DNA of 57,094 bases from an uncultured Acidobacteriota bacterium (GTDB taxonomy: Bacteria; Acidobacteriota; UBA890). Made by a program: the position numbers and the translations under genes. Location of the stretch: assembly GCA_964430745.1 (NCBI GenBank), contig CAYSHI010000063.1, positions 1-57,094 on the forward strand. The letters run 5' to 3'. Below are positions 4,452 through 40,193 of this stretch, piece after piece; positions within the stretch are counted from its first letter, which is position 1; each line of letters opens with the position of its first letter. Under the pieces are notes generated by a model. The model saw only the letters and a list, made by a program, of their open reading frames with translations. It ran no database searches and was not told the DNA's origin.

Positions 4452-5281
4452 CCCCTCGAGGTCTGCTGCCCACCGCGGTCGGCAGTGGCGAGATTGTCGT
4501 CCATGTCCTCGGTTCCGGAAGCGGATGGCCCACGCCGCGGCGCGATACCAGTAGTCTGCTGATCGGCGTCGTCGACGGGTGGTCGTTGGTGGAGTGTCCC
4601 GGATCGATCGTGCACAAGCTCGCCGTGCTCGGGCTGCTGCCCGGCGACCTCCGACGCCTTATCCTCACGCACAATCACGTCGACCACATCTACGGTCTCG
4701 CCCACCTGCTGCAAGCGATGGCGATTGCCGGGGCGCCGGCTACGTTCGAGCTGCTCGCGCCACGCCAGACGATCGAGTCGGTGCACGGCGTGGTGGCAAC
4801 GCACGGACTCGACGACAAGCACCATCCACGGCTCGAGCTTGTCGAAGTCGAGCTTTCAGATGAGCCACAGGTAGTGCCTGTTGAGGGGCTGCGGCTGCGG
4901 GCCGCACGCACGGCCCATAGCCGCGACACCGCGGCGCTTCGTTTCGAGGCCGGAGACGTTGCCGTCTGCTACTCGTCCGACACACGTCCATGCGAGGCGG
5001 TGGCGCAACTCGCCCGCGACGCCGATATCCTGTGGCACGATTGCGGTGGCCCGCATCGTCAGCGAGCGGCTTTTTCACAGGGACATTCGAGTGCCCTGGA
5101 AGCAGGGCGGATCGCCTCGAAAGCGGGTGCTCGTCGGCTCGCGCTGATGCACCTGGGTTCGCGGGACGACCGGGAATTGCAGGAGTGTGTGCAGGAGGCA
5201 TCCGGTGCGTTCGAGGGGCCGGTCGCGCTGGCGGAAGACGGTGAAACGTGGACTCTGTCAGAGACGACGGAGGATCGATGA
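4448..5281 (+). CDS. MBL-fold metallo-hydrolase
   Basis: Contains the HxHxDH motif (LTHNHVDHIYG). The TTG start overlaps the ybdK stop (TTGA). Confidence 0.8.
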   Translation: MTPRGLLPTAVGSGEIVVHVLGSGSGWPTPRRDTSSLLIGVVDGWSLVECPGSIVHKLAVLGLLPGDLRRLILTHNHVDHIYGLAHLLQAMAIAGAPATFELLAPRQTIESVHGVVATHGLDDKHHPRLELVEVELSDEPQVVPVEGLRLRAARTAHSRDTAALRFEAGDVAVCYSSDTRPCEAVAQLARDADILWHDCGGPHRQRAAFSQGHSSALEAGRIASKAGARRLALMHLGSRDDRELQECVQEASGAFEGPVALAEDGETWTLSETTEDR

Positions 5282-5910
5282 GCACATTGGACACCGAGAC
5301 GGTACAGGCGGCGTACTCGCGCTGGTCGAAGGTCTACGACTGGACGTTCGGTCCGCTGCTGTCGGGGGCGCGCCGCAAGGCCGTGAAGATGCTGGAGCTG
5401 AAGGCGGGAGACCATGTGCTCGAGGTGGGCGTCGGCACCGGCTTATCGCTCCCCCTGATACCGTCGGGCTGCCACATGACGGGCGTGGATTTTTCCCGCC
5501 CCATGCTCGAGAAGGCGCTGCGGCGGGTGCGCGACGGCGCGCTCCTGTGTGACGCGAGCCTGGTCGAAGCGGACGGGACCCGCCTGCCGTTCGCCGATGC
5601 CACCTTTGACGCCGCCATCACGCCCTTCGTAGTCTCCGCCGCCCCCGACCCGGTGGCCCTGTTGAGAGATATGGTGCGAGTCTGCCGGCCGGAAGCTCGA
5701 ATCATCGTGCTCAACCATTTCTCGCCTCGTAGCCCGTTGCTGGCAAGCGTCGAGCGCGGCCTGTCGTCGGTTACGTCGACGCTGCTCGGATTCCGCGCGG
5801 ATTTCCCGCTCGAGCCGTTGTTCGACGAGGCCGGCATCGAGATCGACGATGTTCGCCGTGTCACTCCAGTGGGTGGCTGGTACGCGGTCACCTTGACACG
5901 GACGGGGTGA
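5278..5910 (+). CDS. class I SAM-dependent methyltransferase, resembling Rhodobacter-type phospholipid N-methyltransferase PmtA
   Basis: YSRWSKVYDWTFGPLL...VLEVGVGTGLSLPL...GVDFSRPMLEKA contains SAM motif I. The ATG at 5278 overlaps the upstream stop (ATGA). Confidence 0.75.
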   Translation: MSTLDTETVQAAYSRWSKVYDWTFGPLLSGARRKAVKMLELKAGDHVLEVGVGTGLSLPLIPSGCHMTGVDFSRPMLEKALRRVRDGALLCDASLVEADGTRLPFADATFDAAITPFVVSAAPDPVALLRDMVRVCRPEARIIVLNHFSPRSPLLASVERGLSSVTSTLLGFRADFPLEPLFDEAGIEIDDVRRVTPVGGWYAVTLTRTG

Positions 5911-8921: not shown

Positions 8922-9437
8922 ATGAGCCGTTTACGTGAACACGCCGACCTGGAGCCGGATGCCGCGGCGGGTTTCCGTTTTGCGGTGGTCGTCAGCCGAT
9001 TCAACGGCGAGATCACCGGAGCTCTCCTCGAAGGGGCGCAGCAGACCTTGCGGCAGCACGGCGCTGCGAGCGACGCGGTGCAGGTATATGAGGTCCCCGG
9101 GGCGTTCGAGCTGCCGATGACCGCGGCCCGCCTCGCCGAAGGCGGCGTCGACGCGATCATCTGTCTGGGCGCGTTGATCAAGGGCGAGACGCCCCATTTC
9201 GACTACCTCGGAGCCTCCGTAGCACATGGTATCTGCGACGTTGCGGTACGTTCCGGTGTTCCGGTGATCTTCGGAGTCCTCACCTGCGAGCAACGCGAGC
9301 ACGCCGAGGCTCGTGCCGGGGGCGCGCGCGGTAACAAGGGAGCGGAGGCGGCGCTTGCAGCCATCGAGATGGCCGACCTCTTTGCTTCGATTTCTTCCGG
9401 AGGACCCGACGATGGGCGTCCGACATCGCGCTCGTGA
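8922..9437 (+). CDS. ribH: 6,7-dimethyl-8-ribityllumazine synthase
   Basis: [13 protein letters not shown]...[11 protein letters not shown]...[14 protein letters not shown] are RibH signatures. Confidence 0.95.
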
Positions 9438-12366
9438 GGCGGCGGTACAGTGCCTCTATCAGTGGGAGGTGACCGGTGCCGATCCGGAGAAGATCCTCGC
9501 CGGTTACTGGGAGAGCTACGGCTCCGACGATCTGGCGCTCAAGCGTTTCGCAGAGTTGCTGTTCCGTGGCACGGTGGCGCGGATTGTCGACATCGACGCT
9601 ATGATCTCCGGGCAGACCAAACACTGGCGTCTGGACCGATTGGGACTGGTCGAAAAGAGCATTCTGCGCCTCGGCGCCTACGAGCTCGCGTACGACCCGG
9701 AGACGCCGCCCGCCGTGGTCATCGATGAGGCGGTGGAGCTGTGCAAGAAATTCTGCGGTCCGGAAGCGGGGCCGTTCGTCAACGGTATCCTCGACGCCAT
9801 CAAGGGCCGCGTCGGGGAGCCCGGCGGAACCATTCGAACCGTGAAATACGACCCCTCGACGATCGAATCCAAGTGGCAGAAGCGCTGGGACGACGATGCC
9901 GTATACCGGGCCGGCGACAGCGACGAGGGCAAGAAGTACTACTGCCTCGAGATGCTCCCGTATCCGTCCGGGCGCTTGCACATGGGGCATGTTCGCAATT
10001 ACTCGCTGGGCGACGTGGTGGCGCGTTTTCGCCGCATGCGGGGCTTCAACGTCATGCACCCGATGGGATGGGACTCGTTCGGCATGCCGGCGGAAAACGC
10101 GGCCATCGAGCGCGGGACGCACCCGGCGATCTGGACGCGCGAGAACATCGCGGTGATGCGGGCACAGCTCAAGACGCTCGGCTTCGCCTACGACTGGGAT
10201 CGTGAGATCGCCAGCCATACACCGGAGTACTACCGCTGGAACCAGTGGCTGTTCCTGCGCTTCCTGGAGCGCGGCCTGGCGTATCGCAGGGAGGCCCTGC
10301 TCAACTGGTGCCCCTCGTGCGAGACGGTGCTTGCCAACGAACAGGTGGAAGACGGCGCGTGCTGGCGCTGCGGCTCGGCGGTGGAAGAGCGCCACCTGTC
10401 GCAGTGGTTCTTTCGCATTACCGAGTACGTGGAGGAGCTGCTCGAGGACGTCGACAAGCTCGAGGGTTGGCCGGAGCGCGTCCGCAATATGCAGCGCAAC
10501 TGGATCGGACGCAGCAACGGTGCTCAGGTCGCTTTTTCGGTAGAGGGCGAGGGGGAGTCGCTGGAGGTCTTCACCACGCGCATCGATACGATCTTCGGCG
10601 CCACCTTCATGGTTCTGGCTCCGGAGCACCCGCTCGCGCGCCGCTGGTATGACGGCGGACCCGGCGCGGACGCCGACCTCGATCGCGAGGCCTTCGCCGC
10701 CCGCGTCGACGAGCTGGAGAAGATGAATCGCCGGCAACGCCCCGGCGAAGAGGGCGAGAAGGAAGGGGTCTTCACCGGCCACTATGCCGTCAACCCCTTC
10801 AACGGCGAACGTCTGCCGATCTGGATCGCCAACTTCGTTCTCATGGACTACGGCACCGGCGCGATCATGGCGGTGCCGGCACACGACGAGCGAGACTTCG
10901 AATTCGCGCGCACGTACGACCTTCCCGTGCGTCCGGTGATCGCTCCCGCCGCGGGCGAGGCGGCCGACGGGATCGCCGACCCCGAAGCCATGACGGAGGC
11001 GGCGCCTATCTACGGTGCCTTGATGGATAACTGCGGCGCCTACGCCGGCATGAGCTCGGAGAGCGCGCAGGAGAAAATGGTCGCCGACGCGGAAGCCGGC
11101 GACTTCGGCGGCGCCGCGATCGACTACAGGATCAAGGACTGGGGCGTATCGCGCCAACGCTACTGGGGTACGCCGATTCCGGTGATCCATTGCGGCGCCT
11201 GCGGGGTGGTACCGGTTCCCGACGAGGATCTTCCGGTGGTGCTGCCGGAAGACGTGGAGCTTTCCGGAGAAGGAGGCTCCCCGCTGGGCAAGGTCGAGGC
11301 GTTCGTCAACGTCGATTGTCCGAGCTGCGGCTCCGCGGCACGGCGCGAGACCGACACCATGGACACGTTCGTCGACTCGTCTTGGTATTACCTGCGCTAC
11401 CTCTCGCCGCACGACACGGAAGCGCCGTTCGAGCGCGGGGCGGCTGATTACTGGCTGCCGGTGGACATCTACATCGGTGGCATCACCCACGCGGTGCTGC
11501 ACCTGCTGTACTTCCGTTTTTTCTGCAAGGCCATGGCGGACCTCGGATTGCTGCAGGTGCGGGAGCCTGTCACCCGGTTGCTCACGCAAGGCATGGTGCT
11601 GCTGGGAGGTTCGGCGATGTCGAAGTCGCGCGGCAACGTCGTCGATCCGGAGTCCATGGTGCAGCGCTATGGCGCCGACGCGACACGCCTCTTCGTCTTG
11701 TTTGCCGCGCCCCCGGAACGCGACTTCGAGTGGGACGAGGGGGGAATCGAGGGGTGTTCCCGTTTTCTCAGCCGGACCTGGACAATCGTCGAGCAGTCGC
11801 TCGCGTCGATCGCCGACGTCGGCACGTCCGGTAGCGCGACAGACTTGCCGGATGCGTTGATCAGACTACGGCGCAAAGCGCACGACACGACCCGACGGGT
11901 GACCGAAGAGATCGACCAACGATTGCACTTCAATACCGCCGTGGCGGTGCTGATGGAGCTGCTCAACGAGTGCTACGCCGCGACGGCGGAAGTACCGCCG
12001 GCCGAAGCGGGGGAGCACGCGTGGGTGTATCGGGACGCGTTCGAGCGCTTGATTGCGCTGCTGTCACCGTTCGCTCCGCACGTTACGCAGGAGCTCTGGG
12101 AGAAGCTCGGAAACGAGGGTTATCTCCTGGATAGCCCATGGCCGGCGTACGACCCGTCGGTGCTCGAACGCGAGACGGTGCGAATCGCGGTGCAGGTCGA
12201 TGGTAAGGTGCGCGGGACGGTCGAGGTTCCCGTTGATCTCACCGACAAGGATGCTCTCCTCGAGGAGGCTTCGAGGGAGGCCAACGTCGCGCGACATCTG
12301 GAGGGAAGGACCTTGGTGCGCAGTGTCGTGGTTCCCGGCAAGATCATCAGCCTGATCACATCATGA
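9412..12366 (+). CDS. single open frame encoding NusB (N-terminal ~135 aa) fused in frame to leucyl-tRNA synthetase
   Basis: The ATG at 9412 is preceded by GGAGGA. The NusB block reads [13 protein letters not shown]...[14 protein letters not shown] 9-aa linker GEPGGTIRT follows, then [16 protein letters not shown]...[16 protein letters not shown]...KMSKS-type (AMSKSRGN) LeuS. There is no stop codon anywhere between. Confidence 0.8.
9841..12366 (+). CDS. leuS: leucyl-tRNA synthetase module, with possible independent initiation at GTG 9841
   Basis: The canonical LeuS N-terminus (V/M)[12 protein letters not shown] begins at GTG 9841. HIGH-type (HMGH) and KMSKS-type motifs are present. Only a weak RBS precedes the GTG. 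Confidence 0.6.
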
Positions 12367-20064: not shown

Positions 20065-22464
20065 TCAGGTCCGCAGGCCGACGGTGATGTAGCCTGCCAG
20101 CGCCAGAAAGAGCACGTGGGGCGCCCAGGCGGCGATTGCGGGCGGAAGGATCTCGGCGGCGCCGACGGCGCGGAAGAACACGAACGCCAGCCAGAAGAGC
20201 ACCGTCAGCATCAGCGCGAGGGCAACGCCCGAGAGCGTGCCCTGCCGACCCATTCGGAAACCGAAGGGGATGCCGACGAGCGCCAACACGAAGACGATCG
20301 CCGGAAAGGCGAACTTCTGCTGAAGGTCGATCTTGTACTTGCTGGCGTCGAAGCCTCTGACCTCGAGACTGTCGATGTGGGCCCTTAGCTCGGCGGCGCT
20401 CATCTGCTCGGGCAGTCTTCGCTCCGTGCCGAAATAGGCGGGCTGTTCCGTGATACCGAGCTCGACCAACTCATACCGCATGAGCTCGGGCGAGACGATC
20501 GTGCCGTCGTCTTCGTACACGTAGTGACGCCGCCAGCTGTCGGTGGCCAGCCATCGACCCTCTTCCCAATGAGCCTGCGCCGCATAGTCGACGCGCGCGA
20601 GGCGCCAGGCCTCGTCGTCCAGGTAGTACACACGCAGCCCCTGGAAGGTCATCTGATCGGGGTCGTAGTCGGCGTAGTTGAAAACGTAGTTGCCCGTGCC
20701 GCGCGCCCAGTGGCCGCCGGCCGGGCGCACGCTGAACGGTGTGCTGCCGAGGTTGAGCGAGTGCTTGACCTCCTCGGCGCGTTGATTCGTGTACGGCACG
20801 ATGTAGTCGGATACCCCGTACTGCAGAAGGGTCAAGGCGACCGCCGGAATGAGAATGGGCGCCGCCAGACGGAAGAGGCTGGTGCCGCCGGCGAGCACCG
20901 CGACCACCTCGTTGTGCTTGCTCATCAGGCTGAACACGATGAGCACGGTGAGGATGGTGGCGATCGGCAAGGTCATCACGAAGATGAACGGGAGCTGGAA
21001 TTTGAAGTACTCGATATAGATCCAACGGCTCGCGCCGACCTGGTAGACGTCGTCGGAGATCTCGAAATACTCGCCGATCATCCAGATCACCGTGAGGCCG
21101 CCGAGCGTGAGTGCGCCGATGCGAAGAAACTGGGTCAGCACATAGACGTCGAGGATACGGGGAAAGCCTCGCCCGTGATAAGAGCCGCCCACACGGGACT
21201 TGCGCTCGGTAGCGGCGATCTCGGACTCTCCACGCGCGGCGTGCCACGCGTCGATCACGTGCTCGCGGACGTAGTCAGAGATGCGCAGCGCGGTATCGAG
21301 AATGCCGAAGTCCTTCTCGCGGGCCTTGGCCCACAGCAGGATCAGAGCCGCGAGAGCGATGACGATGTCGGCTGCCCACACCCCGAGCCACGGAGCGATG
21401 GCGCCCTCCTCCGCAAACTTCTCCCCGCCGTCGATGAACATGTAGTAGACGGCGATAACGCCGATGGCCATGAGGTAGCCGGTGGCCTTGGTCTGTCGCG
21501 TTGTCGAAACCCCGAGGGGGAGGGCGATCAGAGCCATTACCAGCCCCGCCACGGGGATGGCGAACTTCTTGTGCACCTCGACGGCGAAGCGCTCCGTGGG
21601 TTGGCCGGCCGCCTCTCGGACGGCGATCTCGGCGCGCAGTTCCGCCACGTTCATGGTGCGCTCGTCCTTCGACACCGGCGCGACGGCACTCCCGGCCTGG
21701 CTGTCCAGAAGCTGGCGCTGCTCGGCGAACGACGTGACGCTGGACTCTTCGGCGGTGGCGCCGCCCTCGTAGATGTAGCCGTCCGTGAGCTCGATCCAGG
21801 CCTCGCGATTGGCGTTGCTGTAGGTCGCGAGGGCGCCCTCCGCCATGATGACCTGAGGCGGGTTGGAGTCGGTCCGCACGAGCATGAGCTGCTCCCAACG
21901 CTGGTCCGGTTGCGTGACCTCCTCGACGAAGAGCGTGAAATTGGGGAAGCGCGTCTCGAAGACGCGGGGGCGAACCTGGTTCGTGAGGGTGCGGGAGTTG
22001 ATGAGCCGCCACTGGAGCTGGCGGACCTCGTTGTTTCCCCACGGCAGGATGACCAGGCAGAGGTAGAGGTTGAGCAAGAAGGCCGCGAAGCCGACCAGCA
22101 GGATCGGCAACGCCAGCTGATAGAGGCTGATGCCGCTGCTGCGTAGGGCGATGATCTCGGCGTCGGCGGACAGCCGGCCGAAGCCGATCAGCCCTCCGAC
22201 CAGGACCGCCATCGGCACCGTTAGCACGATGATGTGCGGCACGGTGTACAGGAAGAGCAGCCCGACGTCGCCGGCGCTCAAGCGGTCGCGAATGATCCAC
22301 TCGGCGAACTGCAGCAGCGTGTTCATCAACATGAAAAACGTAAACAGACCGAAGCCCATCAGCGTGGGGGCCGTGAGCTCGCGCAGCACGTAGATGACCA
22401 GGGTGGGGGACGGCGGGCGAAACGACCGCATACGGCCCGCGGTGGCGGCTTCGGCGCCGTTCAT
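20065..22464 (-). CDS. fused LPS export permease LptF-LptG (two YjgP/YjgQ modules in one 799-aa ORF)
   Basis: The N-terminal half reads IYVLRELTAPTLMGFGLFTFFML...IIALRSSGISLYQL. A second module begins around residue 430 (ILDVYVLTQFLRIGALTLGGL...VAVLAGGTSLFRL). The ATG overlaps the upstream GT2 stop (ATGA). Confidence 0.85.
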   Translation of the reverse strand: MNGAEAATAGRMRSFRPPSPTLVIYVLRELTAPTLMGFGLFTFFMLMNTLLQFAEWIIRDRLSAGDVGLLFLYTVPHIIVLTVPMAVLVGGLIGFGRLSADAEIIALRSSGISLYQLALPILLVGFAAFLLNLYLCLVILPWGNNEVRQLQWRLINSRTLTNQVRPRVFETRFPNFTLFVEEVTQPDQRWEQLMLVRTDSNPPQVIMAEGALATYSNANREAWIELTDGYIYEGGATAEESSVTSFAEQRQLLDSQAGSAVAPVSKDERTMNVAELRAEIAVREAAGQPTERFAVEVHKKFAIPVAGLVMALIALPLGVSTTRQTKATGYLMAIGVIAVYYMFIDGGEKFAEEGAIAPWLGVWAADIVIALAALILLWAKAREKDFGILDTALRISDYVREHVIDAWHAARGESEIAATERKSRVGGSYHGRGFPRILDVYVLTQFLRIGALTLGGLTVIWMIGEYFEISDDVYQVGASRWIYIEYFKFQLPFIFVMTLPIATILTVLIVFSLMSKHNEVVAVLAGGTSLFRLAAPILIPAVALTLLQYGVSDYIVPYTNQRAEEVKHSLNLGSTPFSVRPAGGHWARGTGNYVFNYADYDPDQMTFQGLRVYYLDDEAWRLARVDYAAQAHWEEGRWLATDSWRRHYVYEDDGTIVSPELMRYELVELGITEQPAYFGTERRLPEQMSAAELRAHIDSLEVRGFDASKYKIDLQQKFAFPAIVFVLALVGIPFGFRMGRQGTLSGVALALMLTVLFWLAFVFFRAVGAAEILPPAIAAWAPHVLFLALAGYITVGLRT

Positions 22465-23132
22465 CGGGCAGTCTCGTAGTGGCGGGCCAGGAGCGCGGGA
22501 TCAACGCCGCAGTAGTAGAGGCTGCGCAGCAACCACATTCTGAGGATCGTGCGTACGGCCCCGCCTCGCTCCCATCGGCGTGGCGACGTGATCACCGCCG
22601 GCCGCAGCCTCGCCACCCGGCCTGCGCGCTTGAGACGGCGACTGAACTCGATGTCCTCGAACAGGGGGAGCGGCGCGAAGCCGCCGAGACGCTCGAACAC
22701 CTCGCGGCTGACGAACATTGCCTGGTCACCCGAAGACACGCCGGTGAGCCGGCTGCGCAACGAGATCAGGAAGCCCACGAGGCGCAACAGCATGCGATCG
22801 GAATCGAGCGCGACGTCGAAGTTGCCGCCGACCGCTCCGTCGCGGACGGCGCGGCGCACGGCGGTAAGCGCGCCGGACGGAAGGCGCGTGTCGGCGTGTA
22901 GAAACAGCAGGGTCGCCCCGCGAGCCACTTTCGCTCCCGCGTTCATTTGCGCCGCGCGTCCGCGTGACGCGGCGACATGGCGGTATCCTGAAGCGGTTAA
23001 CAGCCGCGTTGTCTCGTCGCTGCTGCCTCCATCCACAAAGACGATATCGGCGGCGAGCTTGTTGAGGTAGTGAAGCAGTTTCGGCAAGGTGGAGGCTTCA
23101 TTGAGCACGGGGATGATGATGCTGACGCACAC
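22461..23132 (-). CDS. family 2 glycosyltransferase (TIGR04283-like)
   Basis: VSIIIPVLNEASTLPKLL...IVFVDGGSSDET...FLHADTRLP is a GT-A fold with DxD-type motifs. Confidence 0.8.
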   Translation of the reverse strand: MCVSIIIPVLNEASTLPKLLHYLNKLAADIVFVDGGSSDETTRLLTASGYRHVAASRGRAAQMNAGAKVARGATLLFLHADTRLPSGALTAVRRAVRDGAVGGNFDVALDSDRMLLRLVGFLISLRSRLTGVSSGDQAMFVSREVFERLGGFAPLPLFEDIEFSRRLKRAGRVARLRPAVITSPRRWERGGAVRTILRMWLLRSLYYCGVDPALLARHYETAR

Positions 23133-23166: not shown

Positions 23167-24069
23167 ATGTTTCATCTCACCGTGCTGGGGAGCGGCGCCT
23201 CACTCCCTACGCTTCAGCGCCAGACAACCGCGGTCGCGGTTCAACGTGAGGGCGACCTGTACCTGCTCGATTGCGGCGAGGGCACGCAGATCCAATGGCG
23301 GCGCGCCGGTCTTCGCTTCAGCAAGCTTCGGGCGATCTGTATCTCCCATCTGCACGGCGATCACGTCAACGGTCTGGTGGGGTTTCTGCAGACCCTTTCT
23401 CTCGGTGGCCGGGAGAACGCCCTCGAGGTGATCGGCCCTCCGGGGATCAAGGGGCTGCTCGACGCGGCCCGGCGCCACGTGGGCCTGCGACTCACGTATC
23501 CGTTCAGCGTGCAGGAGAGCGAGGGCGGCACGGTAATCGAGGGAGCGGGGCACACGGTACGCTGTGCCCTCCTGAATCACGGCATCGCCACGCTGGGTTT
23601 CGCCATCGACGAGGCGGCGAAGCCCGGTCGCTTCGACGTAGAAGAAGCACGGCGTCTGGGAGTTCCCGAGGGGCCGATGTTCGGCCGGTTGCAGCGGGGC
23701 GAAACCGTACGGCTCGAGGACGGCGCGGAGATCGAGCCGGCGCAGGTTCTCGGCGCGCCCCGGCCCGGACGTCGTGTTGCCTATTGCGTGGATACGCGGC
23801 CGTGCGGAGCCGCGGTGGAACTGGCGCGGGACGCGGATGTCTTCCTGTGCGACGGGACGTTCACCGAAGAGCTGACCCTCGAGGCGCGCAACCGGGGCCA
23901 CAGCACCGCGGGCCAGGCGGCGGAGATGGCCCTGCAGGCGGGGGCGCGGCGCCTCGTACTCATTCACGTCTCGGCGCGTTACCATGACCCGCGCCCCCTG
24001 CTCGACGAAGCAGCTCGGCTCTTCCCCGATGTCGTGGTCGCCTACGATTTGATGCAGATGAAGGTCTGA
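23167..24069 (+). CDS. rnz: ribonuclease Z
   Basis: LTVLGSGASLPT...LLDCGEGTQIQ...ICISHLHGDHVNGL...VIGPPGIKGLL is colinear with RNase Z. The product is 300 aa. Confidence 0.9.
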   Translation: MFHLTVLGSGASLPTLQRQTTAVAVQREGDLYLLDCGEGTQIQWRRAGLRFSKLRAICISHLHGDHVNGLVGFLQTLSLGGRENALEVIGPPGIKGLLDAARRHVGLRLTYPFSVQESEGGTVIEGAGHTVRCALLNHGIATLGFAIDEAAKPGRFDVEEARRLGVPEGPMFGRLQRGETVRLEDGAEIEPAQVLGAPRPGRRVAYCVDTRPCGAAVELARDADVFLCDGTFTEELTLEARNRGHSTAGQAAEMALQAGARRLVLIHVSARYHDPRPLLDEAARLFPDVVVAYDLMQMKV

Positions 24070-26933: not shown

Positions 26934-27773
26934 TCAGTCGTTGAGCAGAGCTTCTCGCGTGGTCTGCAGCAGATCGGCGAGTTGCTCGCGGGGTACATCA
27001 TTGACGAACGGTGCGACCAGCCAGCGCAGCATGAACGGGATCGTTCGAGTCAGCGAGATGGATTCGCACTCGATGTACGTTCCGCCGTCACGCTCGAGGA
27101 ATCGCCAGTAGGAGTTGATGCGCCACAGAAACCCGCTTCCTTCTCCGTCCGGGAGCGCGCGTTCTTGCGGGGTCCCCGGTTCCTGGACCTCTCGGACCGA
27201 CGACGTACGCGAGATGGAGTAGGTGCGCCCGACGGAGGGCGTGACGTACGCGACGTCGTGAACCGTGTCCATGACGACGGTGATGACCTTCTTCTTGCGG
27301 AAGCGCATGAAGACCTCGAAGAGGTCGCCGTCTCGGCGGATGATGCGGGCGTCCGCCACTTCCGGTGAGTAGATCTCACTGTGTCGATCGTAGTCCTGAA
27401 TGAGCTCGAGCGTCTCGTCGAGGCCGACATCGGGTATGAAGACGGCGCCGAGCCAGTGATGTATCAATCCGTCGTCGATCTCGATCTCCTTGCCGCCGGC
27501 GTCCACGGTCTCCAGAGGCTCCATGTACATCTGTCCGCGGCGCAGATCGGCGAGGACCTGGACGCGCTCGCCCTCGGGATAGGAGTCGAGGTAGAGGAAG
27601 CTCCCGGTCGGGCCGGCCTGGGCGAGGACGCGCTCCTCGGTGAGCGTGGCATAGCGCTGGAATGCCCGAAGCGTATGCGCCTCCAGGTCGCCGGCGTACG
27701 GCGAAACGACCGGCGCGACAGTGGGCGCCACGCAAAGTAAGCTGATGCAGGCCGTGAAGATCTTCAGATACAT
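26934..27773 (-). CDS. hypothetical secreted protein (possible START/SRPBCC-like fold)
   Basis: The N-terminal signal peptide is MYLKIFTACISLLCVAPT. The coding composition is coherent and no motif was recognised. Confidence 0.55.
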   Translation of the reverse strand: MYLKIFTACISLLCVAPTVAPVVSPYAGDLEAHTLRAFQRYATLTEERVLAQAGPTGSFLYLDSYPEGERVQVLADLRRGQMYMEPLETVDAGGKEIEIDDGLIHHWLGAVFIPDVGLDETLELIQDYDRHSEIYSPEVADARIIRRDGDLFEVFMRFRKKKVITVVMDTVHDVAYVTPSVGRTYSISRTSSVREVQEPGTPQERALPDGEGSGFLWRINSYWRFLERDGGTYIECESISLTRTIPFMLRWLVAPFVNDVPREQLADLLQTTREALLND

Positions 27774-35637: not shown

Positions 35638-35836
35638 TCCTGCGTCGAAGGTGATCCGGCGCTCGACACCGATCCGCACCAAGGGTCTTGACAGGCGCCG
35701 CGGCGCCTGGACACAATAACGAAGTTGCGCGCGTCCTTAACTCTTGCGCGCGGCGGACCCCTCACCTTTCGAGTTCGCGGTCCGCCAACCCTTGTGTTCC
35801 TATGCACTCCATTTCCCTCACACAGGTCTGTGTCCC

Positions 35837-37249
35837 ATGAACGAGCGCAGGCGCCGTCCGCGTCGTCGTCGCGGTCGCCGCGGTAACCGCACCCAGCAGC
35901 CAACAAACAAACAACCACAGCAGGGCAAGCAGCCCGGACCGGAGATGATGGTCGACGAGGAGCCGGATGCCGTCCTCGAAGGCCTGCATTCGGTCTCCGA
36001 TCTGATCGACATGCGTCCCGCCGAGCTTTTGGAGGTCGCCCAGGAGGTAGGCTGCGCCGACAAAGCGGCGGAGCTGACCCAGACCAACCTGGTCTTCGAG
36101 ATCCTCAAGGTACAGGCCACCGACAACGGCTTCCTGTATAGCGAAGGTGTCCTCGAGGTTCTGCCGGATGGTTACGGCTTCCTGCGAGCTCCCGATTTCT
36201 CCTACCTGCCCGGGACCGACGATGTCTACGTTTCCCCGTCGCAGATCCGCAAGTTCGCCCTGCGGACCGGAGACACGCTGTCGGGTACGATCCGCAAGCC
36301 GAAGCCCGGCGAGAAGTACTTCGCCCTGGTTCGCGTCGACGCCATCAACTTCGATCCGCCGGGCATGGCCCAGCAGCGCAAGCGCTTCAAGAACCTCACG
36401 CCGTTGCATCCGGAGGATCGCATCCGGCTCGAGCTCGGCAAGGACGAGATCGCGTCGCGGGTGCTTGACCTGCTGACGCCGCTCGGCTTCGGCCAGCGCG
36501 CCATCATCGTGTCGCCCCCGCGCGCGGGGAAGACGTTGCTGCTCCAGACCATTGCCCGTTCGCTGGAAGCCAATCATCCGGATGCATACGTGATCGTCTT
36601 GTTGATCGACGAGCGCCCGGAAGAGGTGACGGACATGCAGCGCACGGTCGCCGGCGAGGTCGTCGCCTCTACCTTCGATGAGCCGTCGACGCGCCACGTG
36701 GCCGTCGGTGAGATCGTCATGGAGAAAGCGCGACGTCTCGTCGAGCATGGCATCGACGTGGTGATCTTGCTCGACTCGCTCACGCGCCTGGCGCGCGCAC
36801 ACAACACGGTGACGCCGGCTTCCGGTCGTGTGCTCACCGGTGGTGTGGATGCCAACGCCCTGGAGAAGCCGAAGAAGTTCTTCGGTTCCGCCCGTAACAT
36901 CGAAGAGGGCGGCAGCCTGACGATCATCGCCACCGCGCTGGTCGAGACCGGGTCGCGCATGGACGAGGTGATCTTCGAGGAGTTCAAGGGTACCGGTAAC
37001 TCCGAAGTCGTCCTCGACCGCAGGCTGGCGGACAAGCGCATCTTCCCTGCCATCGATATCAATCGATCGGGCACCCGCAAGGAAGAGCTGCTGCTGGAGC
37101 CGGATGAGCTGCAGCGCGTGTGGATGCTGCGTAAGGCGCTCGCGGCCGTACAATCCGATGAGGCCATGGAGCTTCTCATCAAGCGCCTCGGCCAGACGAA
37201 GAACAACGAGGAGTTCCTCACCACGCTGAGCGAGACGGGAGTTTCCTGA
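35837..37249 (+). CDS. rho: transcription termination factor Rho with an Arg/Gln-rich N-terminal extension
   Basis: [14 protein letters not shown]..., Walker A SPPRAGKT, and colinear Q/R loops. The ATG at 35837 gives [16 protein letters not shown]... Confidence 0.95.
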
Positions 37250-37277
37250 CCTCGCCGGCAGCGGAGCGCGTCGCCTG

Positions 37278-37832
37278 ATGGCCTGGATCCGCGAAATCAT
37301 GCCGCCGGACGCCGACGAGCGGTTGGCGTCCATCTACGATCGCGTCGGCGAGCCCGACGGCAGCGTCGATCACATCCTGCGGATTCACGGCCTGCATCCA
37401 CGTTGCCTGGAGGAGCACTACGACCTCTACATCACGACGATGAAGAGGAGCTCTCCCCTGTCGCGCACGCGCCGCGAGATGGTCGCCGTCGTGGTCTCGG
37501 CTCTCAACGAGTGCCACTACTGACTGACCCACCACGCGGAGGGTCTCCGGCGACTGTGCAAGGACGACGCGCTGGTGGCCGGGCTATCGCGAGACTTTCG
37601 CGATGTGCAGTTGGAGCCCGCTGACCGCGCCATGCTGGAGTTCGTCGCCAAGTTGACGCTCGAGCCGCAACGAATGGAACGGGATGACGTCGAGAGGCTT
37701 CGCGCCGAAGAGTTCGACGATCGTTCGATTCATGACATCGTCCTCGTGGCGGCCTACTACGCGTTCGTGAATCGGATCGCCGACGGGCTCGGTGTCGATC
37801 TCGAGCCCGGATGGACGGGGGACGTCTCGTGA
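37278..37832 (+). CDS. AhpD/carboxymuconolactone-decarboxylase-fold peroxidase-related protein with an in-frame TGA (37521-37523); probable selenocysteine
   Basis: Two same-frame ORFs (37278..37523 and 37575..37832) are separated only by one TGA. The read-through motif is SALNECHY-U-LTHH, compared with the family consensus N-x-C-x-Y-C-x-x-H-H. Confidence 0.7.
37535..37552 (+). promoter_or_regulatory. candidate bacterial SECIS hairpin
   Basis: cgcggag-ggu-cuccg(g)cg forms 7 bp with one bulged G and a GGU apical loop. The loop lies about 20 nt 3' of the UGA. Confidence 0.4.
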
Positions 37833-38392
37833 TCCCAGCGGCGGCGGTACTGATCGCGGTGGGAGCCTGGGTGATCTGGCTCTACAACCGATTCGTCGGG
37901 CTGCAGCAGCGGTCCGAGCAGGCGTTTTCGGACATCGATGCACAGTTGAAGCGACGCCACGACCTCGTCCCGGCACTGGTGGAGACCGTCAAGGGGTATG
38001 CCGGGCACGAGAAGAACACGCTCGAAGAGGTCGTTCGGCGGCGCGGAGAAGCCACTTCGATGGAGGGCGGCACCGCTCCCAGCGGCGGACAGGTGCGCGC
38101 CGAGAATTTCCTCGCTCAGGCTTTGCGCGGCGTTTTTGCGCTGGCCGAGGCCTACCCCGACCTGAAGGCCAGCGAGCGATTCGCCGGTCTGCAATCCGAG
38201 CTGGCGGTGATCGAGGACGACCTGCAGAACGCGCGGCGCTACTACAACGCCGTCGTGCGCGATCTGAATACCACGATCGCGGCCTTTCCCAACCTTCTCG
38301 TGGCGCGGGTCTTCGGCTTCGATCGACGCGACTTCTTCGAGCTCGACAGCCCGCTGGAGCGCGACGCGGCCAAGGTGGACCTCGGTGTATAG
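37829..38392 (+). CDS. lemA: LemA family membrane protein
   Basis: An N-terminal TM segment is followed by YNRFVGLQQRSEQAFSDIDAQLKRRHDLVPALVETVKGYAGHE. The GTG at 37829 overlaps the upstream stop (GTGA). An ATG at 37811 is the alternative. Confidence 0.9.
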   Translation: MIPAAAVLIAVGAWVIWLYNRFVGLQQRSEQAFSDIDAQLKRRHDLVPALVETVKGYAGHEKNTLEEVVRRRGEATSMEGGTAPSGGQVRAENFLAQALRGVFALAEAYPDLKASERFAGLQSELAVIEDDLQNARRYYNAVVRDLNTTIAAFPNLLVARVFGFDRRDFFELDSPLERDAAKVDLGV

Positions 38393-38450
38393 ACAAGCGG
38401 ATGTAGGCGGCATTTCGGTGGGTGACGTCACGCCCTCGTCGCGGTCATCG

Positions 38451-40193
38451 ATGGGCACCAGGGGCCGGGGCCGCGTGGGGTCCGCGTCGCTCGCGGTGCT
38501 GTTGGCACTCCTCGTATCCCTGGCCGCGTCGTCGACGGGCCTTGCCGCACAGGGCGGTCGCTCGTTCTGGATCGAGGACTTCGACGCCACCATCCTCGTC
38601 GACGGTGACGGGGGCATCGACGTCACGGAGGTCATCCGGTTCTATTTCGACGGTTCGTTTAACGGAATCTTCCGGGACATCCCCGTACGCTACAGCGACA
38701 ACCTGGGCTTCAACTACAAGCTGCGACTGACGGTCGTATCGGTCACCGATTCGGAGGGCGAACCCCTTCGCTATGAGCTCGGCAACGCCGGCGGCGGCCG
38801 TCGCCGCATCACCGCCTGGGTGCCGGGGGCGCAGGATGCGGCGCGCACGGTGAGAATCAGCTACCGCGTCAGGCGCGCCTTGCGTTTTTTCCCGGAACAC
38901 GACGAGCTCTACTGGAACGTCACCGGCACGGAATGGGGCGTTCCGATCAAGCGGGTCTCCGCGAACATCGTCTTGCCGGCGACCTTGGAGGTGACCCCGC
39001 GGGTGACGGCCTTCGTGGGCCGCTATGGGACCCGATCCGACGACTGGAGATCCACCTCCCGGTCTCCGCGCGAGGTCAGCATCGAAACCACACGCGAGCT
39101 CGACTTCGGTGAGGGGCTCTCCGTCGTCGTCGGCTGGCAGAAAGGCATCGTGCCGGAACCGGGAATGATGCAGCGCGCGGGCTGGCTGCTGAGTGATAAC
39201 TGGGGCCTCCTCATTCCGTTCGGCGTCTTCGGGCTCATGTTCCTCCTCTGGCGCCGCTACGGGCGCGACCCCGAGATCGGTCGCTCGATCATGCCCGTCT
39301 ACCATCCACCGAAGAGCCTGTCGCCGGCGGAAGTAGGTACGCTGGTTGACGAGCGGGTCGATCAGCGCGACGTCGTGGCCACGGTCGTGGACCTCGCCGT
39401 GCGCGGCTATCTCCGCATCGAGGAAAGCGTCGAGGACGGTTGGTTCACCGACACGACGATCACCACGTTCCGCAAGCTCAAGCAGCCGGGAGGTGAGCTC
39501 AAGGCTCACGAGCGGGAAGTCTTCGACGGGATTTTCGAGAAAGGTGACACCGTCACACTCGAGGACCTGGAGAACGAGTTCTACGAGCGGTTGGGAACGA
39601 TTCAGGGGCAGGTCTACAGCAGTCTGGTGGAGGCCGGCTACTTCAATTTCTCGCCGCAAACGGTGCGCCGCGTCTGGGTGGGTGTCGGCGTTGCGGTGAT
39701 CGTGCTCGGCGTTCTTCTCGCCGTCGTCCTGGAAAGCGTCGGCAGCGCCGTCGCCGGCGCGGCTTCGGGCCTGATCGTCGTGGTGTTTGCCTGGTTCATG
39801 CCGGCGCGAACACGCGCGGGGCGCCACGAATGGGTCGCGATCAAAGGGTTCGAGGAATTCCTCGGCCGGACAGAGGGAGAGCGTTTGCGCGAGATGGCGG
39901 TCGACCCCGGCAAGTTCGAGGTCTTTCTTCCCTTCGCCATGGCGTTGGGTGTCGCGGAGCAGTGGGGGCGCGCTTTCGAGGGCATGCTCAAACAGGCGCC
40001 GCACTGGTATGTCGGACCGCACGTCGGGCACTTCTCCCCCTCCGGCTTCACGCAACGGATGAACAGCGTGCAGAATTCCATGGGCACCGCAATGACCACC
40101 GCGCCGCGTAGCTCCAGCGGCAGCAGCGGCTTCTCCGGTGGCAGCGGGTTTTCCGGCGGTGGCTTCGGCGGCGGCGGCGGCGGCGCCTTCTGA
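38451..40193 (+). CDS. DUF2207-domain membrane protein (usual LemA partner)
   Basis: A signal peptide is followed by FWIEDFDATILVDGDGGIDVTEVIRFYFDGSFNGIFRDIP, central TM helices and a Gly-rich tail GGSGFSGGGFGGGGGGAF. The ATG at 38451 is the likely start; the ORF is open from GTG 38385. Confidence 0.85.
   Translation: MGTRGRGRVGSASLAVLLALLVSLAASSTGLAAQGGRSFWIEDFDATILVDGDGGIDVTEVIRFYFDGSFNGIFRDIPVRYSDNLGFNYKLRLTVVSVTDSEGEPLRYELGNAGGGRRRITAWVPGAQDAARTVRISYRVRRALRFFPEHDELYWNVTGTEWGVPIKRVSANIVLPATLEVTPRVTAFVGRYGTRSDDWRSTSRSPREVSIETTRELDFGEGLSVVVGWQKGIVPEPGMMQRAGWLLSDNWGLLIPFGVFGLMFLLWRRYGRDPEIGRSIMPVYHPPKSLSPAEVGTLVDERVDQRDVVATVVDLAVRGYLRIEESVEDGWFTDTTITTFRKLKQPGGELKAHEREVFDGIFEKGDTVTLEDLENEFYERLGTIQGQVYSSLVEAGYFNFSPQTVRRVWVGVGVAVIVLGVLLAVVLESVGSAVAGAASGLIVVVFAWFMPARTRAGRHEWVAIKGFEEFLGRTEGERLREMAVDPGKFEVFLPFAMALGVAEQWGRAFEGMLKQAPHWYVGPHVGHFSPSGFTQRMNSVQNSMGTAMTTAPRSSSGSSGFSGGSGFSGGGFGGGGGGAF

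Follow-up and report, generated by a model that had tools for sequence, protein, structure and literature searches.

A pair of open reading frames (ORFs) separated by a single UGA, found in a genome fragment of an uncultured Acidobacteriota bacterium, is probably one gene for an AhpD-like thiol/selenol oxidoreductase of the carboxymuconolactone decarboxylase (CMD) fold, in which the UGA is decoded as selenocysteine (Sec); from the comparisons of sequence described below, the probability of this reading is put at about 0.9. The predicted selenoprotein gene, of the TIGR01926/COG2128 type, occupies positions 37278..37832 on the forward strand of the window (the whole stretch of DNA that was analysed, 57,094 nucleotides) and consists of 184 codons and a stop, with the predicted Sec, U82, encoded by the in-frame TGA at 37521..37523, where most relatives have TGA at the homologous codon. 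A preliminary description of the window, made from its letters and ORFs alone, had proposed a probable AhpD-like selenoprotein split in two, and this proposal is supported by conservation of the TGA, by alternation of Sec and Cys at the site, by selection on both sides of it, and by a hairpin specific to the TGA forms.

The upstream ORF (37278-37523) begins with ATG and encodes 81 aa, and the downstream ORF (37575-37832) begins with GTG and encodes 85 aa. As previously noted, sequence and translation place both in one frame of the forward strand, 37278-37832, with TGA 37521-37523 as the sole internal stop. The stretch between them, 37524-37574, comprises 17 codons and reads LTHHAEGLRRLCKDDAL; the string given for it earlier was correct in having no further stop, but its final V belongs to the GTG at 37575. 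The readthrough product of 184 aa contains ...SALNECHY-[TGA]-LTHHAEGLRRL... and ends at the terminal stop 37830-37832, and its N-terminus, MAWIREI, agrees with the family consensus MAWIR.I. The "second ORF" (37575..37832, forward strand) of the ORF list and of public gene calls would be an artefact of gene callers, namely the C-terminal half of the same protein. Three separate public assemblies (ENA ERZ27295567, JGI 3300025895 and Logan SRR5279028) contain an identical gene of 555 nt, TGA included, from which it follows that the stop is genuine and no sequencing error. All three call it as fragments of 81 and 85 aa, just as standard gene callers had been expected to do. A reassigned genetic code (4 or 25) was considered and ruled out, since TGA is the ordinary stop for the large majority of the other ORFs of the window.

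Profile searches of the 184-aa product, conducted with Cys substituted at the stop, assign it to the NCBIfam family TIGR01926, "peroxidase-related enzyme" (124.3 bits against a cutoff of 81.8), with residues 11-174 matching profile positions 10-174 of 178. The AhpD core-domain profile TIGR00778 (ahpD_dom; 38.5 bits, cutoff 27.8) and the Pfam CMD domain PF02627 (41.7, cutoff 23) also match, so that the initial identification of a CMD/AhpD-fold peroxidase-related enzyme, colinear with its family, holds nearly from end to end. Scores fall below the cutoff for the canonical AhpD of the M. tuberculosis type (TIGR00777; 16.3 bits, cutoff 191.95) and for NF041238, the "AhpD_rel_CFYUT" (CFYUT seleno)protein family (57 bits, cutoff 175). 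NF041238, the "distant AhpD homolog" family NF041047 and a CMD-like PF02627 selenoprotein share the superfamily and the CxxU logic with the product of the window gene, but are different families.

The redox block C79-H-Y-U82-L-T-H85-H86 (37512..37535, forward strand) was recognized by direct reading and by the match to TIGR00778. Together with C79, U82 and H86, E67 (codon 37476-37478) completes the AhpD core signature E-x11-C-x2-C/U-x3-H, and Y81 sits between the two redox residues. The UGA aligns with the second Cys of the motif C-x-Y-C-x-x-H-H in Cys homologues (two database proteins, eight related loci, the structures 3C1L and 2PFX, and others), which agrees with its earlier placement at a catalytic Cys position. 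The closest solved structures, 3C1L (Mlr4105, a putative antioxidant defence protein; E=6e-28), 2PFX, 2OYO and 2PRR (uncharacterized peroxidase-related proteins) and 6K40 (AhpD), can be aligned end to end with the product, and 3C1L, 2PFX and 6K40 over its residues 17-177; they differ from it in being Cys forms, all with C-x-Y-C at the site of the UGA, and none has a defined physiological substrate. By these sequence matches to solved Cys-form structures, the fold is already fixed.

Relatives of the gene were collected by a scan of one genome per species, from which the best 80 of 433 confirmed matches were taken (44-80% protein identity). Among these best 80 of 433, the homologous codon is TGA in 79 loci and TGC in one, from WOR-3. 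The TGA loci are spread over about ten phyla: Acidobacteriota, Gemmatimonadota, Chloroflexota, Planctomycetota, Marinimicrobia, Actinomycetota, Bacillota, Calditrichaceae, Zixibacteria and Bacteroidetes. A second set, of 70 loci, came from a metagenome scan that started from Cys forms and has TGA in 48, TGC or TGT in 19, GGT in two and CGT in one; across the two sets of relatives, Sec codons thus alternate mainly with codons for Cys. The preliminary description had reasoned that close relatives with TGC or TGT and no conserved hairpin would make the gene a simple nonsense pseudogene, and the outcome was the opposite, the closest relatives all having both the TGA and the hairpin. In a protein-database search, full-length Cys forms are about 40-50% identical to the product, and dozens of entries of 101-116 aa are more similar (55-72%). 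These short entries start exactly one residue past the stop (xTHH..., xHHG...), and stubs that begin right after the TGA are the trace that this break has left in numerous genomes.

Other residues occur at the site as well. Genuine codons for Gly (GGT at two loci, with the motif C-A-Y-G) or Arg (CGT at one locus) take the place of the Sec or Cys codon, and eight database proteins likewise have Gly or Arg there; these members of the family are therefore without the second redox residue. Trp is found at the Sec position of 23 database entries (CHYW or CRYW), which match Marinimicrobia-type loci that have TGA, and these entries are probably the result of translation of TGA with genetic code 4 by the depositing pipelines.

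The GC-rich hairpin with a GGU apical loop that had been noticed about 20 nt 3' of the UGA, and likened in its geometry to bacterial SECIS elements, is present as described. This predicted bacterial SECIS (37535..37552, forward strand; stem 37535-37541 / 37545-37552, apical loop 37542-37544) has 7 bp counted from C37535-G37552, one bulged G (37549 or 37550) and the loop G37542-G37543-U37544; its stem starts 11 nt and its loop 18 nt after the UGA. The 18-nt core has a calculated energy of -6.8 kcal/mol, and 37530-37559 one of -8.9 kcal/mol. With its GGU loop, 7 bp, 18-nt spacing and -8.9 kcal/mol, it fits every constraint of a published model of bacterial SECIS elements (loop of 3-9 nt, stem of 4-16 bp, G in the first two loop positions, spacing of 16-37 nt and MFE <= -7.5 kcal/mol; PMC13188914). 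Compared with dinucleotide shuffles of this sequence of 66% G+C, the 18-nt core has a z of -0.84 and the 30-nt segment a z of +0.20, and unconstrained folding of 37515-37585 favours a competing hairpin at 37526-37545. The hairpin of the window, taken alone, is not statistically unusual, and its significance comes from comparative data only. Searches of Rfam returned nothing at the gathering threshold in the window, and the matches around the UGA site were at chance level (E ~2), with no general bacterial SECIS family among them. The archetypal bacterial SECIS is that of E. coli fdhF. It and the hairpin of the window have in common an in-ORF position 11 nt after the UGA, a small loop with G followed by G or U, and a distance of 16-37 nt from UGA to loop, the consensus model being that of PMC13188914; they differ in that the stem in the window is shorter, there is no sequence similarity, the register varies among AhpD-like lineages, and the SECIS of the window is a predicted one.

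An alignment of 54 nt across 80 TGA sites is free of gaps, with an invariant G at +19 and a G at +20 in more than 90% of the sites. The register of the stem varies by lineage (for example GGAGCC-GGGCUG-CUCC, CGGCGC-GGUCU-GCGCCG and GAGAA-GGUC-UUCUC), and the apex is always on the GGU codon. Covariation of the hairpin among orthologues, which the preliminary description had named as a test, was found in part: a hairpin specific to TGA forms is present, and a compensatory change from G-C to C-G occurs at alignment columns 20:30, the register shifting while the GGU apex stays fixed, but covariation in the classical sense is weak (for a fixed 6-bp structure, pairing is kept in 81% of cells and a double change occurs in just 6) and RNAalifold yields no single consensus structure for the 80 aligned TGA sites. 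Both of these latter results are attributed to the shifts in stem register between lineages.

Folding energies were also compared with those of synonymous recodings. The MFE of the whole region is weakly significant by this measure (mean z -0.70). In a restricted test, the hairpin loop was required to contain +19..+21 and each sequence was set against 200-300 synonymous recodings drawn from the codon usage of its own locus. The TGA forms (n=127) then average -8.3 kcal/mol versus -4.3 kcal/mol for their recodings, with a mean z of -1.75; p <= 0.05 for 44% of them, and 98% equal or exceed half of their own recodings in stability. The Cys forms (n=20) average -2.0 versus -1.4 kcal/mol (z -0.33). 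GG is found at +19/+20 in 119 of 127 Sec forms versus one of 20 Cys forms, and certain synonymous codons are in excess in the stem and loop (observed versus expected: GGT 50 versus 17, CTC 55 versus 20, CGT 40 versus 8). The hairpin encodes the protein motif G-(A/E)-G-L-R-R-L, which Sec forms retain and Cys forms have lost. By all of these comparisons, the predicted GGU-centred hairpin is a feature of the TGA forms that the Cys forms lack.

Two readings dispense with decoding of the UGA altogether. If the TGA were a recent inactivating change of a Cys codon, the gene would be a nonsense pseudogene from which only the 81-residue N-terminal fragment is made; such a change from TGC or TGT takes one base, the gene calls do consist of two fragments, and no Sec machinery was detected in the 57-kb window. 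However, the TGA is common to 79 of 80 relatives (the best 80 of 433) from about ten phyla, the half downstream of it has no frameshifts, and the hairpin specific to TGA forms is in place. In six of eight relatives, dN/dS ranges over 0.16-0.37 upstream of the TGA (N-terminal half) and over 0.12-0.30 downstream of it (C-terminal half; in the remaining two relatives, one ratio is not computable owing to saturated pS and one is 0.374); low values on either side of the TGA imply that both halves are translated in frame, and, judged by these ratios, both are under purifying selection. The comparative data effectively refute the pseudogene, leaving it practically no chance of being correct. A split gene is another conceivable arrangement, in which the 81-aa N-terminal polypeptide and a re-initiated C-terminal polypeptide would join in a single AhpD-like fold that has just one Cys; possible starts are GTG 37575 and the ATG or GTG that some relatives have right after the TGA. 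Yet the codon directly 3' of the TGA is ATC, ATT, ATA, CTG or CTA in most genome loci, which means that no conserved restart is available, and a canonical start, ATG or GTG, stands there in just 18 of the best 80 of 433 loci. The segment LTHHAEGLRRL, with its invariant HH, which lies between the TGA and the GTG of the window, is conserved in frame, and the stop aligns exactly with a catalytic Cys and is accompanied by the hairpin with the GG loop. Assembly from two polypeptides is extremely unlikely on these grounds.

Harder to distinguish from DNA is the insertion of another amino acid at the UGA, since the inserted residue cannot be read from the sequence: Cys might be delivered by a tRNACys of the selC* type, an allo-tRNA might act as suppressor, or Trp might be incorporated through near-cognate readthrough. 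There are precedents in SelC* tRNACys opal suppressors and acidobacterial allo-tRNAs, but the taxa with reported selC* genes are Firmicutes, Thermodesulfobacteria, Nitrospirae and Proteobacteria, and do not include Acidobacteria (PMC5389517). No such tRNA was found in the window, the site has every hallmark of a catalogued family of CxxU selenoproteins, and plain leaky readthrough needs no conserved hairpin with a GG loop, so that recoding to a residue other than Sec is very unlikely. There is an equally slim chance that the hairpin serves as a recoding signal for a UGA at which a non-canonical tRNA inserts Cys or acts as suppressor, or that the UGA acts as a selenium-dependent switch between the 81-residue and the full-length product; the data favour neither.

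If the UGA is decoded as Sec, the mRNA hairpin at 37535-37552 would recruit SelB-GTP-Sec-tRNASec to it, Sec would be inserted at position 82, and translation would proceed through LTHH... to the stop at 37830-37832. U82 and C79 would then make up a CxxU redox pair, with E67, Y81 and H86, the proton-relay residues of AhpD, flanking it. The Sec would occupy the position of Cys133 of M. tuberculosis AhpD, which we take to be the attacking nucleophile, C79 would resolve the selenenylsulfide formed at the Sec, and the protein may cycle between the selenol/thiol and selenenylsulfide states, reducing a partner of the peroxiredoxin type or a peroxide. Decoding by SelB and tRNASec in the source organism, the physiological substrate and the redox partner are what we infer. 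To our knowledge, incorporation of selenium into a member of the AhpD-like CxxU family has never been shown experimentally.

By analogy, the protein probably works like M. tuberculosis AhpD (Rv2429, the adaptor and reductant of AhpC), that is, by dithiol/disulfide exchange. The two share the CMD/AhpD helical core, in which Glu118, Cys130, Cys133 and His137 correspond to E67, C79, U82 and H86; the protein encoded in the window differs in being outside the TIGR00777 subfamily, in having no ahpC neighbour, and in the predicted Sec in place of the second Cys. Whereas M. tuberculosis AhpD has His between the redox residues, the protein of the window has Tyr, like PA0269 (the proton-relay residues are Glu118/Cys130/His132/Cys133/His137 in the former and Glu36/Cys48/Tyr50/Cys51/His55 in PA0269; PMC3141380).

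The ahpD-like gene starts 28 nt past the stop of rho, and its end overlaps the start of lemA by 22 nt, an overlap that suggests co-transcription; a gene for a DUF2207-like membrane protein comes next. The order rho, ahpD-like (Sec), lemA, DUF2207-like (35744-40193 of the window) is kept in the three closest Acidobacteriota loci, where Rho is 83-88% identical, and outside loci of this type the ahpD-like gene is found in other contexts. One of the three, with an ahpD-like gene 80% identical to that of the window, lies on OZ244217.1, the nearest complete chromosome. There is no ahpC among the neighbours (rho, lemA and the DUF2207-like gene). The window as a whole is housekeeping DNA, with lpxA, leuS, murJ, xerD, metK, lptFG, rho, uvrD/pcrA and sppA. 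Neither selA, selB and selD nor tRNA-Sec was detected in its 57 kb (by NCBIfam on 40 ORFs, ARAGORN and Rfam), and ARAGORN detected no tRNA-Sec in the window and 60 related loci; lack of the Sec machinery in 57 kb carries no information on the remainder of the genome.

A motif- and GC3-aware scan of the window for a second selenoprotein candidate returned the AhpD-like site only. Two further same-frame ORF pairs, one at TGA 24067-24069 (RNase Z, then a thioesterase) and one at TGA 26934-26936 on the minus strand (a protein of no known identity, then a TIGR00725 protein), were rejected as ordinary adjacent genes. Several other features of the window were observed in passing. On the plus strand, 9268-12366 encodes a NusB domain (TIGR01951) and then a complete bacterial LeuRS (TIGR00396) in one frame with no stop between them, and either this is a NusB-LeuRS fusion or leuS is translated from an internal GTG and nusB is without a stop of its own. 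On the minus strand, a single ORF of 811 aa (20068-22500) has matches to LptF at aa 37-390 and to LptG at aa 449-804, as expected of an LPS-export permease of the fused LptFG type, which these matches indicate. Also on the minus strand, 22464-23141 matches TIGR04283, "arsenosugar biosynthesis glycosyltransferase" (254 bits, cutoff 182), and on the plus strand, 5245-5907 encodes a PmtA-like methyltransferase with weak similarity to selenoprotein fusions of the ArsM type; neither has an in-frame TGA.

The gene of the window belongs to an already known selenoprotein family, catalogued since 2005, and is not new in this respect. The first report, from 2005, drew on the Sargasso Sea metagenome and described an "AhpD-like protein" (COG2128, CxxU) with 27 sequences and a SECIS prediction (PMC1088965); a 2006 survey of sequenced genomes, in which selenoproteins of Acidobacteria are listed too, found AhpD-like selenoproteins (PMC1794560); and "AhpD-like 1" was counted 299 times in the GOS selenoproteome (PMC2398784). 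The family is included in BSepDB (PMC13326102) and is entered in a 2026 review as "AhpD-like protein, TIGR01926, CxxU" (PMC13188914). The preliminary description had said only that AhpD-like selenoproteins were predicted in bacterial surveys, and the exact family is indeed among those catalogued (PMC1088965, PMC2398784, PMC13188914). The copy in the window resembles this family in scoring above the TIGR01926 cutoff, in its length (about 180-185 aa), in the position of its predicted Sec, at the second Cys of CxxC, and in the predicted in-ORF SECIS with G in a small apical loop. It differs in nothing substantive, being a copy from an uncultured Acidobacteriota-like lineage that lies between rho and lemA and is split in gene calls.

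The main consequence is a correction of annotation. In at least three public assemblies, the gene is represented by two meaningless fragments (81 and 85 aa), and dozens of its homologues are stored either cut down to C-terminal stubs (about 100 aa) or with Trp wrongly given for the Sec; recognition as a selenoprotein restores one intact redox protein. The in-ORF SECIS, constraining both codon choice and protein sequence, is a clean illustration of a principle that is already known. The source organism, represented by an Acidobacteriota-like MAG, is likely to be a user of selenocysteine.
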